In this document: in pieces, positions 3,709 to 27,417 of the stretch
How the letters are laid out: each line of letters starts with the position of its first letter
Position numbering within the stretch: position 1 is the first letter of the stretch
Source of the DNA: a phage
Length of the DNA: 64,000 bases
Sequence record: PV730299.1
Strand: one strand, 5' to 3'
Notes under the pieces: generated by a model
What the model was told of the DNA's origin: nothing
Database searches by the model: none
What the model saw: the letters and a program-made list of their open reading frames with translations, nothing else
Translations under genes and position numbers: made by a program

Positions 3709-6700
3709 TTATGCCAGAGCAATCAAACGGAAATCTTTGAATGACGGCGGTGCTGTGCGGTTGCCTCTGACCAGCAGGCGGATCTTCAGGCCAACGAAAG
3801 GATTGGTGCTGTCTACAGTCTTGTCATACTCATATTCGAAGAATGTAGAACCGTCATTGACCAGAGGGGATGTCGGTGTCACAGTTTCCCATGCCACATC
3901 ATCCATCTCCTGGCCTGCGCGCAGCAGTTTAACTTGCACAGTCATTGAAGACTGAGAAGGTAGCATCGCGCCGAAGTATTGCTTCAGAGTGGTACAAGGG
4001 TTATCGAATCCGATATCCTTGGTCACATAGCTGAACACATCTTCAAACGGATCCACCCCGTAGGTGTTGAAGATGATAGTGAAATCATCACCGTCGATCA
4101 TTGGAGCCGTGTAGACATTACTCTCGTTGCGAGTCATGGTTGCACGAACCTGGAAGTCGCCCACCTGACGATAGATACCTTCCGTCGGCAGAGGCACGTC
4201 CGTATCGGATTCGAACTCAACCCAATCAGAGAATGAGTTGGAGGTCGCATCGCGATAGCGGTATTCCAGTTTCAACACAGATCCTTCCAGGGCTGAATTG
4301 GTGACGCTTGCGTAGAACATGTCTACCAAGTAGTTGCCTAGGAAAGAAGCCGCTTCACCACCAATCTGACCGTCGGAGTCGGCGTTGGAACTCAGAACGA
4401 ATTTGAACGTCGTGAACGTCGCATCAGTCACAGTGTGTTGAGCGTTCAGTTGCTCAGGAGTGAAACCGCAACCACCCGTCAACCCAGACAGAGTAACACT
4501 TTCACCCGCAGTCAGGCCATGCCCCGGAGCGTACACAGTAACAGTTGAAGAACCGTTGACACATTTCACGGTGTTCAGACCCAGAGGACGGATCTTCGGA
4601 CCGACTTTAGCATCGAAGGTCACGATGTTTGAACCAGCGGAGAAGTTGCAGCGATATACACGGAACTTCATATCGGCAGTCTGGTTTGGAGTCCAGGTCG
4701 TACCATTTGAAGATGTGAAGAACACGCCAGTGTACGGCTGTTTGGCAATGAACTCGTTGGTCAGCAAGTTCTTCTTGCCCATCTCTGCGATGTATGCGTT
4801 GTAGTCCTGAGTGTTGGCCAAGAGAACAATCGCGAACTCAGTCTGTGCCTGCAGATACACAGGATAATCAAACTTGAACATCGTTGGTACAGAAGAGTCT
4901 GTGGAGACGGAAACTTCTGATGGATTCAGAGTCTTACGAGTGACGACAGTCGTCGCTGGCAGACCATTGCTCATCTCGCGGATTTCCAGAGTGATCGGGA
5001 TATCACGGGACTTGGTAGAGAAGAAGACTTCGATGCCTTCGATGTATTCGCCGCCGATATTGGTGGCAACCATGAAGGACTGGGCGATAGGATCTTTCCA
5101 CTTCGCGACTTCAACCGTCTCTGTTTTGTTTTCCGTAGACTTGGTCGCAGTGTATCCCAGGACGCGGGTGTTGACATAAGTCTTCTGGATGCCCTGTTTC
5201 TTGCCGAAGGACTTATGAACAGCCTCAGCATTGGTCAGGGTATCATCAGCAGACTTGCTGTCCACAGGACTGTCAGTCAGACGGAAGACGTTGTCACCCG
5301 TGTTAAACTTGATAGTCTCGTTCTGAGGAACCGCAAACACACCTTTGATGTTGCCGTTGGCATCAGTGTTCAACGCACCACCCAGTACACCACCGTTTGG
5401 GGTACAGTACGCGCTCACATCACGTCCAGAGAAGAACGGATACACACGAGTGAACGGACGCAGCCCTGTGGCTTCGAAGTTGATGTTCGTTTTGCGCATG
5501 TATGGGATTACCTGCGTTTCAACGATCTGCTCGCCAGTCAGGGTAGTGGTCGTCTTGTCGGTGTACGTGTACGTGGTGACGTCACGGGTAGACACAGTCG
5601 TGCGGTAGCGATAGCCCCACCATACACCACCTGCACCATGCGGTTCCCACACACGCTCAGACACGGACACAGTACGCCATGTGCCATACACGGAACCTTC
5701 TTTGATCGCACCACGGGTGTTGATCGTTTCGTTGATCACACGTGGAGTAACATAGTAGTTCTCAAACCAGTAATCAGTAGTCGGGTTCAGCTTCAAGAAG
5801 CCTTCCCAGTTGAACACCGCATACGGGTTCACGTTGATGGTCGTGGTTGCATAGTCCTGGCGGACAGAGATCTCACGGGTGTAGTTGCATACAACCATGC
5901 CATCCTGAACGTTGTTCCAACCGACTGGCGTCAGGTCAATCGCGTTCTGCTGAACAAACGGACGCAGGCGACCATTGTCAGTGTCAATTGAACCCACCCA
6001 GTCTGCAGACAAATCGTCGATCAGACGGAAGTCTTTGAACGGGTCTGCTGCGATACCGTTCTTGAAGCGCGGGTTGCCAGTAATTGGATCGAACACCTGT
6101 TGTGACATCGCCGAGGATTCTAGCTGTGACAGTGAGGTGTAATATTCGACATTGGAGATACGGGTCTCCAGTTTACCGATATCGCGCATCGTGTAGCGGC
6201 GGTTGTCGATAGTACGAATCTGGATGTCGTCAATGTTGGCCGTGTAAGGCGGGATCATCAATTCATACAGGCGCATGCCGTTGTCTGGGATCGCAGGGGA
6301 AGCCAGGTTGTTGGAACTCACACCACGAGCAACGTTGAACACACCGTTGTCTGCCAGATACACAGCATCAATACGAGGCAGATAGTACTCTGCATCTAGG
6401 ATGATCGCGGTATTCGGGCGAACCATGTCCGTGTCCGACGCTCCGCTGGTGATCTTGGGACGGAAGTCCAGACTATCGGCCAACCCATACACAGTACCAG
6501 AACTGGATGAAACATAGTTCGGGATGTCTGGGTAGTTGATGGACGAATAGGAGTCCGCTGTGAAGAAATCACCAGAGCTGTGAGCGAAATACTGATACAC
6601 CACCGTGAACGTCCCTGAAATGGCTCCTGTGGACGATATGAGGTTAGAAAGGTAGTATGCAGCATCACGCTGACCGCCGTCCAGAGTGAAGTTAGAGGTG

Positions 6701-23838: not shown

Positions 23839-24408
23839 ATGCACATTAACACAGCAATCATGAAACACATTATTCCTTTGTTAGCAAAATACGAAGGGGA
23901 ACGCGCCACGAAAATCCCTTTTGGAACAATCACCGATGAAGTGAAACGCCTGACAGGTAAAAGTATCAATTTCCGTCGCGTTATTGAATCTGCGTTAGAG
24001 TTGGCCCGTTCTGATTTACGAAATCCAACATTTTCATTTAATATTGACATAACTTCTTCTCTTCGACAAGAAATGGAAGAATCATCACAAGCGCGGCGCA
24101 ATCGTTTCCGTCATTTATATGTTCGTAACGAATTCTCTGAAGGTCGTGTTGGTATGAAACTGGAGTCTATTCGTTCTGACATTTGCTTCACTGTCAACTA
24201 TGTTTTAGAGCCAGAAAGCGGGCGCATTTATTTTGGCGCGATTATCGGTTTCTATGGGAACTCTATTAATGGTTGGGCTGAACGCGTTGGATTAAAAGAA
24301 ACCCAGAACACTCATTCCACACCTTCTACCCATTATATGACGCATGAAGCTGCTGGCGAATATGTTTACCTTCTGCGTCGTATTGTGAAGTTAGAAGTGT
24401 TAAAATAA
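23839..24408 (+). CDS. hypothetical early protein, 189 aa
   Basis: ORF track; first plus-strand gene after AT-rich divergent control region. Confidence 0.55.
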   Translation: MHINTAIMKHIIPLLAKYEGERATKIPFGTITDEVKRLTGKSINFRRVIESALELARSDLRNPTFSFNIDITSSLRQEMEESSQARRNRFRHLYVRNEFSEGRVGMKLESIRSDICFTVNYVLEPESGRIYFGAIIGFYGNSINGWAERVGLKETQNTHSTPSTHYMTHEAAGEYVYLLRRIVKLEVLK

Positions 24409-24465
24409 CGCTTTATTCAATAAATAATTGCAGTAAAGTTAGTTGCATGGAAGGGAGGGAACACT

Positions 24466-24612
24466 ATGTTTTACATGATGTTACTCCTCATCCTCCTGAT
24501 CGGGATTACCTTTACTCTCCTGGGTCTACCCGATCAGTCCGGTAAACAGACGCCCACTTCGGCGCATCCGGTTTTGTGCGAAGGTTCGTCCGCACTGCTG
24601 TGGGCAGTGTAG
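24466..24612 (+). CDS. small hydrophobic peptide, 48 aa
   Basis: ATG with AAGGGAGGGA RBS 6 nt upstream; single hydrophobic helix; below ORF-track size cutoff. Confidence 0.35.
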   Translation: MFYMMLLLILLIGITFTLLGLPDQSGKQTPTSAHPVLCEGSSALLWAV

Positions 24613-26439
24613 CTCAAAGAGGAGAGGACTTTTCAAATTAGCTGGGCTGCAGTAAAGTATTAAGCGTGAGGCGAACAACGCATCGAGTTAGGCATCTAAA
24701 GCCGACCTCGCTAATCCCAGTCTCAGGGGCATGCGTGAATAGAGGCGTGATATCCACCTTGCATGGTGTCAGTGGACGCACTTGACCGTCGGAGAACGAA
24801 ACTCCCTGTTGTAGCGTGATTAGCTCAGAATCAGAGAGCACCCCGTTGGCAAGTCGACACCAACGCAAGGGGAGGTCGGGGGCGCTAATCTCCATCACGC
24901 CGACAACATTATGAGTCTTCCATAGAGGGTTCATAATGTTGCGTCAAAGGGCAACAAGGTTCCTGTTGGTTGAATTAACTTGATTCATAGTTCCTACTGA
25001 TCTTCCCGGATTCGAAGGAGCACCAACAGGCGAGGCCGGATGCGTAAGTTCCGGTAAATCGATGGTGATACCCTCGCCAACAAAAATAAAAGGTTTTATC
25101 AATAACGGGTTACAAAGTATAGTTAACCCACTGAAGCGAAAAGCTGTTTGGGCATTAGACAAACACTTCGATGTGAACCCAGGACATGGTGTCTTGTGCT
25201 CAAACAGGTTTTCGTTTTCGTTGTGAGTGACTTTGCGGGTTTTTAGAAACTGACCAAGCAAATAACTGCTAATGATTCCGAAGTTCTGATGGCGGCGTAA
25301 CAGCCTATAAGTCAGTGAGGTCTTCCGATTCCTCATCACCAAATTCGGCGCACTAAAATAGACGGGAGGGTGTGATTAATAATCTCCCGTCGACAATGCC
25401 GTTATATCTGACTGTCCAAAGGGGATAAGCTCCTGAGTAAGCAGAGGTGGGTTGCCTAAGTCAGATGGGATGTAAGGTCAGCGCTGGCCAAGCATTTGGG
25501 TTCGACTCCTAAAAACGGCTCCACATCTTTGAGGATATTCTCACGAGTATCTTGAAAGATGTGAGCGAAGTCTTGCCATCAGCCCTGATCCCTGGCAGGT
25601 GAAGGGCACACAAATCGAAGTGTCTTGACAATTTATCTTAAACCCAAAGGTTGATCTAGAAATTGGGCGGCCAATCCGGTGGACGATAACAGCATATTGG
25701 GCCATACTGTTGAGTCAGGGCACTTCGATTTGTGAACTTGAGAGAGCATTGGGTGAAATAGACCATGCCTTGCAGATTGCGATGTCTACACACATTCCGG
25801 ACACTGGTGGGCACCAAGAAGAACTCAGTAGCAGACGAGCCATCAGGGTTAGCTACCCGGCGCGGCGAGGACTGGGAGGCCGAACTAAGGGGAAACCCGA
25901 GACAGGCGTAGTATTCTCAAGTTCACAAAATGAAGAGCATTTAAAGAGTTCGATTCTCTTTCAGGCCATTCGTGGTGTGATGTGAGTCATGAATGTTCTT
26001 CATCTTTGGGTGATTCTATGTTGCCGGGCTATCAACCCATGCTTGCTGGAGCAACCAGCGGCTCTGAATCAACCAGCCAGCCTAGTTTGGTCCGAGCGTT
26101 AGAGGACAAGTTGCTTCTGTATGGAAGCTGCGAGTTGTAACATTTGGTTGCAACTTTGATGGCTCTGGATTTTATAAACCATGTCTATGGGTGACGCGGG
26201 ATCTTTAGTACCAGAGCTATCAAAGTTGTGTCCAACCCGATCTTACAAGCCCGTATCCCGGTCTGGTTAAGACTTGTAAGTGGAAAGCCCTGGAAAAATA
26301 AACGCCTGTGGCGAGGCTATGGTGCAAGCCAAAGACCCACAGAAGCGCATGCCGTGAGGCGCACAAACAGGCATGCATGAACTGATCATGCACAAACGGG
26401 ATAAAGGGTTGACAGTCCTTGGTTGGTACACAATAATTT

Positions 26440-26516
26440 GGTCCTGTAGCTCAGTCGGTTAGAGCAGTGAACTCATAATTCATTGGTCATTGGTTCAAAC
26501 CCAATCAGGATCACCA
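26440..26516 (+). tRNA. tRNA with CAT anticodon (Met, or Ile2 if lysidine-modified)
   Basis: Manual cloverleaf: acceptor GGTCCTG/CAGGATC, D-arm GCTC-AGTCGGTTA-GAGC, anticodon loop CTCATAA, T-arm ATTGG-TTCAAAC-CCAAT, encoded CCA. Confidence 0.85.
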
Positions 26517-26769
26517 TGTTAAGGGGTGTGAAACATAACACTCCGACAAACACAGTAAGCGTTGCAGCCAGCTGTGTATAAAATGGGGATGACTCCGCAT
26601 CGGAAACGATGCCCCAACTTCCAGAAATGGTCGGGCGCAAAGCCTGTAAAGTTCCAGGAGATCGAACCAGAAGGCACTGGTCGCCAGTTAACCAATCGGC
26701 GCTGAGAAGCGCGGGGAGTTGGGCTACGGCAGATCAAATGCTCAATCGGGTGTGAAGCCCGTCCAAATT

Positions 26770-26858
26770 GGAAGGTTGCCCGAGAGGTTTAAGGGACTCG
26801 ACTGCTAATCGAGTGGGGCTTTTAGCCCCCGAAGGTTCGAATCCTTCACCTTCCGCCA
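26770..26858 (+). tRNA. tRNA-Ser (GCT anticodon), type II with long variable arm
   Basis: Manual cloverleaf: acceptor GGAAGGT/ACCTTCC, anticodon loop CTGCTAA, variable arm GTGGGGCTTTTAGCCCCC, T-arm GAAGG-TTCGAAT-CCTTC, discriminator G plus CCA. Confidence 0.85.
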
Positions 26859-27228
26859 AATTACGGGCGTGACTTCCTGAAGAGTTAGAAGATGTGCATG
26901 TCGACTCTCTCGTAATCGGGGTGTTTAGGAAGTTAAGAAAATCGCGGCGAGGATAGTGAAATGCAAATAGCTTTCTCTACGTCGACGACTTCAGGTTCGA
27001 CTCCTGACGCGCTCTCCCATAGGGTAGTACCAGTGCAAGCGTGTAGTCTTTCAACCCATCCCATCGATGTGGTATAGCCGGATATCCTATCCGGCTTTCT
27101 TTTTATCCCTGTCTTATTATCTTCTTATCGGCCCAAGCATGTCCTCCTTTATCATAGTTTGTTCAATGATACAAAGGGGGTTTAAAATTTAACCGTTAAC
27201 CCCCTGTCATAGATTTGAGGATACACCG

Positions 27229-27417
27229 ATGCGTAATGTTTCTATCTGGGAATTGAACGAAGTGATTTCCCGTGACACCCCTCCAATTGTCAGACTCTTC
27301 CGATACAAGGGTGTCAAGCGCACTCTGAATGAGTTCCTGTCGCCTGTTTACGTCTACCGTGATGGCGGGTTCTTCCGCCGCGATAAAAAACATCCCGAAC
27401 CTTGGTATGACGTTTGA
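27229..27417 (+). CDS. hypothetical protein, 62 aa
   Basis: ORF track. Confidence 0.4.
   Translation: MRNVSIWELNEVISRDTPPIVRLFRYKGVKRTLNEFLSPVYVYRDGGFFRRDKKHPEPWYDV

Follow-up and report, generated by a model that had tools for sequence, protein, structure and literature searches.

The DNA considered here comprises positions 24613–26439 of a 64,000-nt piece of phage sequence record PV730299.1; the whole 64,000 nt is referred to below as the window, and all coordinates are numbered within it. The stretch lies between a gene for a 48-aa peptide and a pair of tRNA genes, and it carries an RNA element, M2 (25208–25392), that resembles the mRNA-like domain of transfer-messenger RNA (tmRNA), which is regarded as a nearly universal bacterial housekeeping RNA of fixed architecture. 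Features are on the plus strand unless stated otherwise. Megablast assigns the window to a phage of the Ackermannviridae (Aglimvirinae, ViI-like), with ~98% identity to Escherichia phages vB_EcoM-ZQ1, RPN242 and A221. As a preliminary description of this DNA had noted, it contains no convincing coding frame: the longest open reading frame (ORF), on the minus strand, has 132 codons' worth of protein (132 aa) and overlaps M2 on the opposite strand, the majority are shorter than 60 aa, and none of the seven longest matches PHROG or Pfam, whereas the flanking peptide gene (24466–24612), used as a positive control, matches phrog_8415 at 7.7e-33. The stretch is kept at 73–98% identity in hundreds of Ackermannviridae records, most of them without annotation there, and some depositors place “hypothetical proteins” in its equivalent in relatives. 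A gene-free gap of 1.2–3.5 kb occupies the same position, after a baseplate-wedge gene and a 189-aa gene, in all genera checked (Kuttervirus, Taipeivirus, Limestonevirus, Miltonvirus and Nezavisimistyvirus). The region is without a credible protein gene and is kept non-coding across the Ackermannviridae.

ARAGORN and Rfam place tRNA-Met (26440–26516) and tRNA-Ser (26770–26858) downstream of the stretch and call no other tRNAs. RNAalifold analysis of Ackermannviridae alignments shows conserved folds with compensatory pairs over its whole length, and the many short inverted repeats first seen by eye amount to eleven pairs. No terminator is predicted between 25130 and 26400. In relatives, BLAST blocks show that modules of the stretch are gained, lost and swapped independently, with extra tRNAs and HNH endonuclease genes at the junctions; the independent exchange of modules indicates that the locus is not one large RNA and that it is an array in which each module is a small structured RNA. 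The preliminary description had proposed additional tRNAs, an intron or a structured RNA: structured RNAs related to tRNA and tmRNA do lie beside the tRNA genes, while no additional canonical tRNA and no intron was found.

The lead to M2 came from a sensitive BLAST search of the stretch against all phage records, in which query positions 602–771 (window ~25214–25383) matched unrelated phages at 70–83% identity: the N4-like Gamaleyavirus IME11, Deseoctovirus DS8, Sashavirus, Jedunavirus, and several Klebsiella and Salmonella siphoviruses. In these phages the matched DNA is unannotated and intergenic. Aligning five of the matches revealed a tmRNA-style tag. In the window the frame GCU AAU GAU UCC GAA GUU CUG AUG GCG GCG UAA (25268–25300) specifies ANDSEVLMAA and a stop; in unrelated phages ...AUAAAU GCA AAC GAU GAU GUU GUU CUG AUG GCG GCG UAA specifies ANDDVVLMAA; the tag of E. 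coli tmRNA is ANDENYALAA. The frame has no in-frame start codon, and a conserved in-frame UAG stands eight codons upstream.

With a retrieval pattern that did not include the tag, 123 copies were collected from unrelated phage groups, and every one has ten codons and a stop, with TAA, TAG and TGA all used at the same position. The tag occurs in 27 nucleotide variants encoding 15 peptides, 12 of the variants being purely synonymous, and its summed entropy is 9.9 bits at third positions as against 6.0 at first and 4.6 at second positions. The three middle codons are hypervariable, and indels are absent (0/123). Ten-codon AND... frames are likewise present in three copies found independently of the pattern, those of P1 (ANDDLMMVAA), Erwinia phage Bue1 (ANDNEFKVAA) and Serratia phage phiMAM1 (ANDNAYLMVA). 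The tag frame evolves as coding DNA does. Upstream from the resume codon, an A occupies position −4 in all 42 aligned sequences and a U position −5 in 40, the other two having C; these positions correspond to U85 and A86 of E. coli tmRNA, of which A86 is essential for frame setting (PMC2481249). Ordinary translation from an AUG in the +1 frame was considered and rejected, since the window's own lineage lacks this AUG and yet retains the Ala-Asn-Asp frame.

M2 is ~185 nt long, and its parts are, in order, GUUUUCG, an upstream stem-loop, the tag frame, helix 5 (25286–25315), a pseudoknot, PK2 (25316–25348), and a terminal hairpin (25361–25391) with the loop GGUGUGAUUAAUAA. The upstream stem-loop, helix 5, PK2 and terminal hairpin were derived by hand and evaluated on 41 distinct sequences, with controls in which pairing partners were slid by 1–3 columns. 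Cells are paired in 91.4% of cases versus 32–50% in the slid controls, 14 pairs are changed on both sides versus 3–5, and the covariation score is 0.251 versus 0.05–0.09. The outer stem of helix 5, whose loop holds the tag's stop codon, covaries between A-U and G-C (18 versus 22 sequences). Stem 1 of PK2 has three covarying pairs; stem 2 is 100% paired with two covarying pairs and occurs as CCGA/UCGG, CCAG/CUGG and CCAA/UUGG, while the PK2 stem of P1, Bue1 and phiMAM1 is GUCG/CGAC. The upstream stem-loop (CUUUG/CAAAG, GG/CC) is 93% paired, its register slipping between lineages. A candidate second stem at the position of PK1, GUUUU/GAAAC, is invariant and so gives no covariation signal. The most conserved parts of M2 are the RNA motifs AUAAAUGCAAACGA and UUUAGAAAC and the loop GGUGUGAUUAAUAA; partners for this loop, the 3' end of 16S rRNA among them, were sought by eye, and no more than a 4-bp match (GGUG/CACC) was seen. 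The covariance model, R1, built from 42 sequences, scores 25214–25392 of the window at 158 bits (E=4e-41) and also detects the element in Bue1 and phiMAM1, at 82.7 bits each. M2 is a genuine structured RNA with covarying pairs, and very probably a functional one, either homologous to the mRNA-like domain of tmRNA or convergent with it.

The relation to tmRNA can be approached from both sides. In the ssrA locus of E. coli, the sole match of R1 is to the genuine tag and helix 5 (12.5 bits, E=0.024), which makes the phage element collinear with the region of true tmRNA from the resume codon to helix 5. Conversely, the Rfam tmRNA_permuted models align to the tag in five phage groups including the window, at a sub-threshold 21–33 bits (gathering score 47); RF04321 gives 24.1 bits on the window. 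At the gathering score and at E<=10, Rfam yields the two tRNAs and these sub-threshold matches, and nothing more. The lack of an RNA family hit, together with an absence of transcription, had been put forward as grounds for abandoning a structured RNA here; the two tRNAs are indeed the only family matches at the gathering threshold, and to dismiss the stretch for that would have been wrong. ARAGORN relaxed to -ps70 models 25143–25523 as a standard 381-nt tmRNA with the tag ANDSEVLMAA, taking GCUGUUU (25143–25149) as the 5' acceptor strand. An attP site or a remnant of integration into ssrA was rejected as the origin of the likeness: the match is to the tag region and not to the 3' end of ssrA, and the hosts of the element include virulent phages.

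M2 is preceded by a sigma-70-type promoter, TTATCA-16-TATAGT (25096–25123), found by promoter scan, with a predicted start near 25130. It is kept in all Ackermannviridae aligned, including Serratia phage phiMAM1 and Erwinia phage Bue1, even where the upstream sequence diverges, and would give a leader of ~13 nt ahead of 25143. There a 5' hairpin begins (CUGUUUGGGCA/UGCUCAAACAG, 25143–25208), whose stem extension is compensatory, being AGUCCU/AGGACU in Kuttervirus and GGGGUUAAG/CUUAACCCC in phiMAM1. Its conserved loop motif ACACUUCGAUGUG (25163–25175) is complementary at 12 of 13 positions to CACAAAUCGAAGUGU (25611–25623), 435 nt downstream, and the motif is repeated at 25721–25732; a long-range or alternative pairing between modules is possible, judging from the complementarity.

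Downstream of M2 lies M3 (25398–25523), a tRNA-like domain that folds as a cloverleaf-like four-way junction. It has an acceptor stem GCCGUUA/AAACGGC, in which 25398–25404 pairs at six of seven positions, a long arm, a variable-arm hairpin, a T-arm at 25496–25512 (UUGGG-UUCGACU-CCUAA), a discriminator U and an encoded CCA (25521–25523). The T-loop-like sequence remarked upon earlier, GGTTCGACTCC at 25499–25509, proves to be part of this highly conserved gene. Mean column identity over M3 is 97% in 12 phages of several genera versus 73–85% in its flanks; the variable arm shows one compensatory change (C-G to U-A), and the discriminator varies between U and A, while the CCA beside it is invariant. 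For the fold of the 393-nt RNA, z is −3.4. Two strands are candidates for the 5' side of the M3 acceptor stem: 25398–25404, which would leave the tag outside the tRNA-like domain, and the first seven nucleotides of the 5' hairpin, GCUGUUU (25143–25149), which pair at all seven positions with the 3' acceptor strand 25513–25519 and would enclose the tag.

In other phages a tRNA-like scaffold (UGUGGUG ... T-arm-like hairpin ... CACCACA) lies 80–600 nt downstream of the element in 49 of 125 loci. Counting all tRNA-like closures downstream of M2, ordinary tRNA genes included, 46 of 106 loci have one on the sense strand versus 19 on the reverse strand and 9 in shuffled sequence. Examples of the scaffold come from lambdoid, N4-like and T1-like phages (L002 1997–2122, L001 1749–1878, L130 ~6248–6376; such numbers are our designations of loci). 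The ends, UGUGGUG/CACCACA, are constant; two hairpins have complementary loops, GCUGAU/AUCAGC, which co-vary to GUCGA/UCGAC in DS8 and L004; and the middle ~60 nt is hypervariable, in the manner of a display cassette. Five Kuttervirus loci (L041, L053, L057, L107 and L119) have an additional T-arm with CUCCAAU-C-CCA ~120 nt after the element and before a tRNA-like gene; no 5' acceptor partner for this piece was found within 1.3 kb.

The element is widespread. An exact-pattern scan of IMG/VR returned at least 120 loci, those listed being on siphovirus-like and N4-like contigs of 40–72 kb, prophage-like contigs of isolate genomes, and Ackermannviridae of ~155 kb. It is present in 656 of 5426 complete E. 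coli genomes (~12%), with 554 placements on P1-like plasmids of ~90–100 kb and 150 on chromosomes; the copy in E. coli 55989 belongs to a lambdoid prophage, where it is flanked by the Q antiterminator gene and the holin gene. In P1 (NC_005856; L141 1133–1690) it is located in the C1-controlled ban operon, where it immediately follows the annotated “dicF-like region” with its terminator and precedes trnA and trnT. Since C1 represses this operon, expression of the P1 element is expected on induction. Among bacteria sampled at one genome per species, it was found in Enterobacterales and three metagenome-assembled genomes only. Virulent and temperate phages of unrelated families carry it, and the GenBank, RefSeq and PLSDB records inspected show nothing or “hypothetical protein” at its site; the detailed P1 record has no annotation there.

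The remaining modules of the array flank this core. tRNA-like RNA 1 (24814–24901, 88 nt), identified from a single-sequence fold and from the RNAalifold consensus of 10 Ackermannviridae, has a perfect 7-bp acceptor stem (GCGUGAU/AUCACGC), a D-arm (GCUC/GAGC), an atypical T-arm with an odd T-loop, and an extended anticodon arm with an extra hairpin; its cloverleaf is 99% paired in the 10 sequences, with no compensatory change, and it is partly conserved in Serratia phage phiMAM1. A 17-bp hairpin conserved in a 13-sequence alignment follows (24904–24941), and then a domain closed by the stem CCUGUUGGU/ACCAACAGG (24962–25030, RNAalifold consensus), for which Rfam has no match. This domain contains the segment that the preliminary description had likened to the 5' end of tmRNA, CTGATCTTCCCGGATTCGAAGG at 24997–25018. 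The segment is present as described, but it sits inside the stem-closed domain and lacks a 3' acceptor strand with which to pair, and an ordinary tRNA stands there in several relatives, L041, L015, L025, L050 and L114 having the 3' part of a tRNA in place of the domain; the likeness to a tmRNA 5' end does not hold, and the true tmRNA-like signal, the tag frame, is ~250 nt downstream. Nearby, ATACCCTCGCCA (25068–25079) is the 3' end of a tRNA of which Kuttervirus relatives have an intact copy, and a complementary GGCGAGG lies 1.2 kb downstream (26309–26320), which suggests a rearranged or split tRNA gene.

On the 3' side, a 19-bp hairpin (25522–25563, inverted repeat I4) directly follows the CCA of M3; in L050 and L067, both relatives, a segment that has a T-arm of its own is inserted at the hairpin's tip. 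Module M4 (25609–25938) is built of the stems 25609–25629/25714–25734 and 25720–25743/25915–25938 (inverted repeats I3 and I1), and its RNAalifold consensus of 11 sequences has 54 pairs, 14 of them compensatory. The first of these stems (25609–25734) is the window's analogue of the “stalk” hairpins (CACAACAGGUAAGAGC...GCUCUUACCGUUGUG) that stand between RNA modules in many phages (L130 5923–5993 and 6173–6250, L131 4165–4250, L002 1676–1770). Stalk hairpins show compensatory variants and overlapping alternative pairings (CACAAC/GUUGUG repeats), and could be RNase III-type processing sites or recombination joints. Module M5 (26076–26436), which includes the hairpin 26144–26168/26211–26235, has 92 pairs in the RNAalifold consensus of 13 sequences, 97.6% paired and 15 compensatory, and is partly conserved in Dickeya and Serratia phages. 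Within it, a 49-nt hairpin-forming segment (26238–26286) matches, at 96% identity, an intergenic sequence of Klebsiella phage KP13-26, an unrelated phage of 144 kb. A predicted promoter, TTGACA-17-AATAAT (26409–26437, 11 of 12 consensus positions), precedes tRNA-Met. Beyond tRNA-Ser, and outside the stretch, lies tRNA-like RNA 3 (26865–27019, ~155 nt), with an acceptor stem GGGCGUG/CGCGCUC and a T-arm UCAGG-UUCGACU-CCUGA, for which Kuttervirus has the compensated forms GAGUGUG/CGCACUC and UCGGG/CCCGA. It contains a resume-region-like AAAUGCAAAUAGC, the frame of which is broken by an indel in a relative, and a second “AAAUGCAAAU” frame at 26962 was rejected as a further tag on account of a 1-nt indel within the frame in a relative. 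RF00005 at E<=10 and default ARAGORN make no call for 24814–24901, 25398–25523 or 26865–27019.

The data presented above have led us to propose a model, to which we would give an even chance, whereby the stretch is a transcribed array of structured RNA genes ending in the two tRNA genes, and its core, from the promoter at 25096–25123 to the CCA at 25521–25523, is a phage analogue of tmRNA. M2 would supply the start-codon-less template for ANDSEVLMAA, and the aminoacyl-acceptor end would come from M3, which has the T-arm and NCCA. In infected cells the RNA would enter ribosomes stalled on broken mRNAs, translation would resume on the phage-encoded frame, and the ribosome would be released at its stop codon, the truncated protein leaving with a phage-specified C-terminal tag that would resemble the host SsrA degron but differ from it. 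That the core works as a trans-translation RNA of non-canonical architecture, with 25398–25523 as its acceptor domain, seems to us neither more nor less probable than the contrary. Such a role implies that the frame is translated by trans-translation with M3, or the tRNA-like scaffolds of other phages, as the partner, and that SmpB and an aminoacyl-tRNA synthetase would accept this partner. More tentatively, and with some doubt on our side, these elements may constitute a previously unrecognised class of trans-translation RNA in enterobacterial phages (P1, lambdoid, N4-like, T1-like and other siphoviruses, and ViI-like phages), in which a non-alanine tRNA-like domain comes 3' of the template or is a physically distinct piece. 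If so, phages could, during infection, rescue stalled ribosomes and mark truncated proteins with their own fast-diversifying degrons, ANDxxxL[AM][AV]A.

Several observations weigh against the trans-translation model. Rfam at the gathering score gives no tmRNA in the window, default ARAGORN finds none in the window, in L001–L004 or in 125 loci, and an R1 search finds no M2 in Dickeya phage JA15. No canonical tmRNA tRNA-like domain appears to enclose the tag. The G3:U70 pair is absent, the corresponding pair being C3-G70 with 25398–25404 and U3:G70 with 25143–25149 (the scaffolds of other phages have U3-A70, and none of these acceptor stems has G3:U70). The 5' strand 25143–25149 doubles as the base of a hairpin whose extension covaries, and the acceptor strands are invariant in relatives, so that covariation cannot choose between the two candidates. 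Relatives L114 and L025 keep M2 and have lost M3, and a downstream tRNA-like closure is detectable in only 43% of loci. Finally, many siphoviruses have a strong promoter abutting M2 (TTGACA-17-TAGATT, then AGAUAGUUUUCG); the transcript there appears to start at M2, which puts the tag domain 5' of any tRNA-like domain and excludes its enclosure. We know of no tmRNA with this order. A standard one-piece topology is possible for the window itself; as a general rule it lacks support, given the invariant strands, the siphovirus promoter at M2, and the aligned acceptor-strand positions of Bue1, which do not compensate.

The main rival explanation, which we consider unlikely, is that M2 mimics the mRNA-like domain of tmRNA and is never translated, acting instead as a decoy or sponge that modulates or blocks host trans-translation; it would titrate template-binding factors (e.g. 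S1, SmpB or RNase R) or draw off a host nuclease, and would be a novel means by which phages counteract quality control in the host. Such a role would suit the frequent position of M2 at the 5' end of a transcript, the phages that have no recognisable tRNA-like domain nearby, L114 and L025 with M2 and without M3, and the concentration of conservation in the RNA motifs AUAAAUGCAAACGA and UUUAGAAAC and the loop GGUGUGAUUAAUAA. There is also a precedent, a phage RNA with the tRNA-like domain only having been proposed as a tmRNA inhibitor (PMC4131195). A decoy has no need to maintain a strict length of ten codons through a hypervariable middle, to exchange TAA, TAG and TGA for one another at a single site, or to show an excess of synonymous changes at third positions. 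The coding-type conservation of the frame also tells against taking the whole stretch for one large ornate non-coding RNA or scaffold, comparable to GOLLD and ROOL, in which the tag-like frame would be a relic. Structure with compensatory pairs is dense over ~1.8 kb, modules show long-range complementarities (e.g. 25163–25175 with 25611–25623), no terminator is predicted from 25130 to 26400, and the stretch adjoins tRNA genes as GOLLD and ROOL do; yet even at E<=10 Rfam matches neither GOLLD nor ROOL nor another large RNA, modules vary independently from relative to relative, and M2 is found by itself in very different surroundings. We regard a single large RNA as improbable.

Still less probable is that the locus is made up of tRNA and tmRNA genes in decay and of scars left by recombination at a homing-endonuclease hot spot, with no function beyond spacers and processing signals for the tRNA operon. 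The remnant of a tRNA 3' end at 25068–25079, the extra tRNAs and HNH endonuclease genes at junctions in relatives, and the failure of the tRNA-like elements with tRNA models would all be at home there. Pseudogenes, however, would gather indels in the frame, and none of the 123 copies has any; M3 is 97% conserved, M2 covaries family-wide, and M2 is maintained in phages of unrelated families, both virulent and temperate, as well as in 12% of the complete genomes of E. coli. That small protein genes were overlooked, as the “hypothetical proteins” of some depositors and the 132-aa minus-strand ORF might suggest, is very improbable: the seven ORFs are without PHROG or Pfam matches where the neighbouring 48-aa gene has one, most records annotate nothing, and the 132-aa ORF is antisense to M2, where RNA pairing explains the conservation.

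To our knowledge, the phage tmRNAs described so far are all canonical genes and come from a few mycobacteriophages, from Bacillus phage G and from huge phages. Here an element with the hallmark tag template escapes all standard detectors, and model phages (in the P1 ban operon and the lambdoid late-leader region) as well as therapy-relevant ViI-like phages carry it without annotation. Searches of the literature on phage tmRNA-like elements, tag peptides, P1, Ackermannviridae and trans-translation found no description of it. If the element is active, phages would directly manipulate ribosome rescue and degradation tagging, the long-unexplained gene-free regions beside phage tRNA genes would be accounted for, and nature would have provided a test of which parts of tmRNA architecture (domain order, G3:U70 and the pseudoknots) trans-translation requires.

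Compared with E. coli ssrA, the phage element shares a start-less ten-codon tag that starts with Ala-Asn-Asp and ends with Ala, U/A at −5/−4, a stop codon in the helix 5 loop and a pseudoknot immediately behind that helix, and a T-arm, acceptor strand and CCA that follow the tag's stop codon at ~220 nt; its span, 25143–25523, is 381 nt as against 363 nt. It differs in having no G3:U70, neither a D-loop analogue nor a P2 helix that can be recognised, and neither PK3 nor PK4, and in that its tRNA-like part seems to be self-contained and 3' of the tag domain rather than enclosing it. The phage element is tmRNA-like in its template domain but appears to fall short of the features of the tRNA-like domain that define the family. 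The best Rfam matches, sub-threshold and aligned on the ...AUAAAUGCAAACGA... resume region, are to two-piece permuted tmRNA (RF04321, RF01849 and RF01850), which occurs in alpha-proteobacteria, some beta-proteobacteria and cyanobacteria and likewise has a tag piece and an acceptor piece as separable units. In permuted tmRNA genes the acceptor piece comes first and the coding piece begins with the 5' acceptor strand, whereas here the tag domain is first and the tRNA-like unit seems to have both acceptor strands.

Among phages, a 2014 survey of ssrA reported tmRNA in mycobacteriophages and Bacillus phage G only, plus the phage DS6A with the tRNA-like domain alone (PMC4131195). Those of the mycobacteriophage Bxz1 group and of phage G were found with standard detection tools, whereas the present element was missed by the survey, which covered RefSeq phages; DS6A shows that one tmRNA domain can be present in a phage without the other (PMC4131195). 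These are phage-borne parts of the trans-translation system, as the present element would be. By description, the tRNA-like RNAs at 24814–24901, 25398–25523 and 26865–27019 are analogous to the stable RNAs C and D (species 1 and 2) of T4. The latter are small, partly tRNA-like, of unknown function, and both located among the phage tRNAs and co-transcribed with them; we know of no tag template that accompanies them. GOLLD and ROOL (Rfam accessions presumably RF01998 and RF03087) are phage- or prophage-associated and adjoin tRNA genes; neither has an Rfam match on 24300–27300 at the gathering score or at E<=10, and the locus described here is modular and not one conserved large fold. A parallel in domain order is offered by turnip yellow mosaic virus and brome mosaic virus: these are eukaryotic plus-strand RNA viruses, unrelated in sequence and without a tag template, but in them, as here, coding RNA lies 5' of a tRNA-like structure, which in the viruses is an aminoacylatable 3' end.

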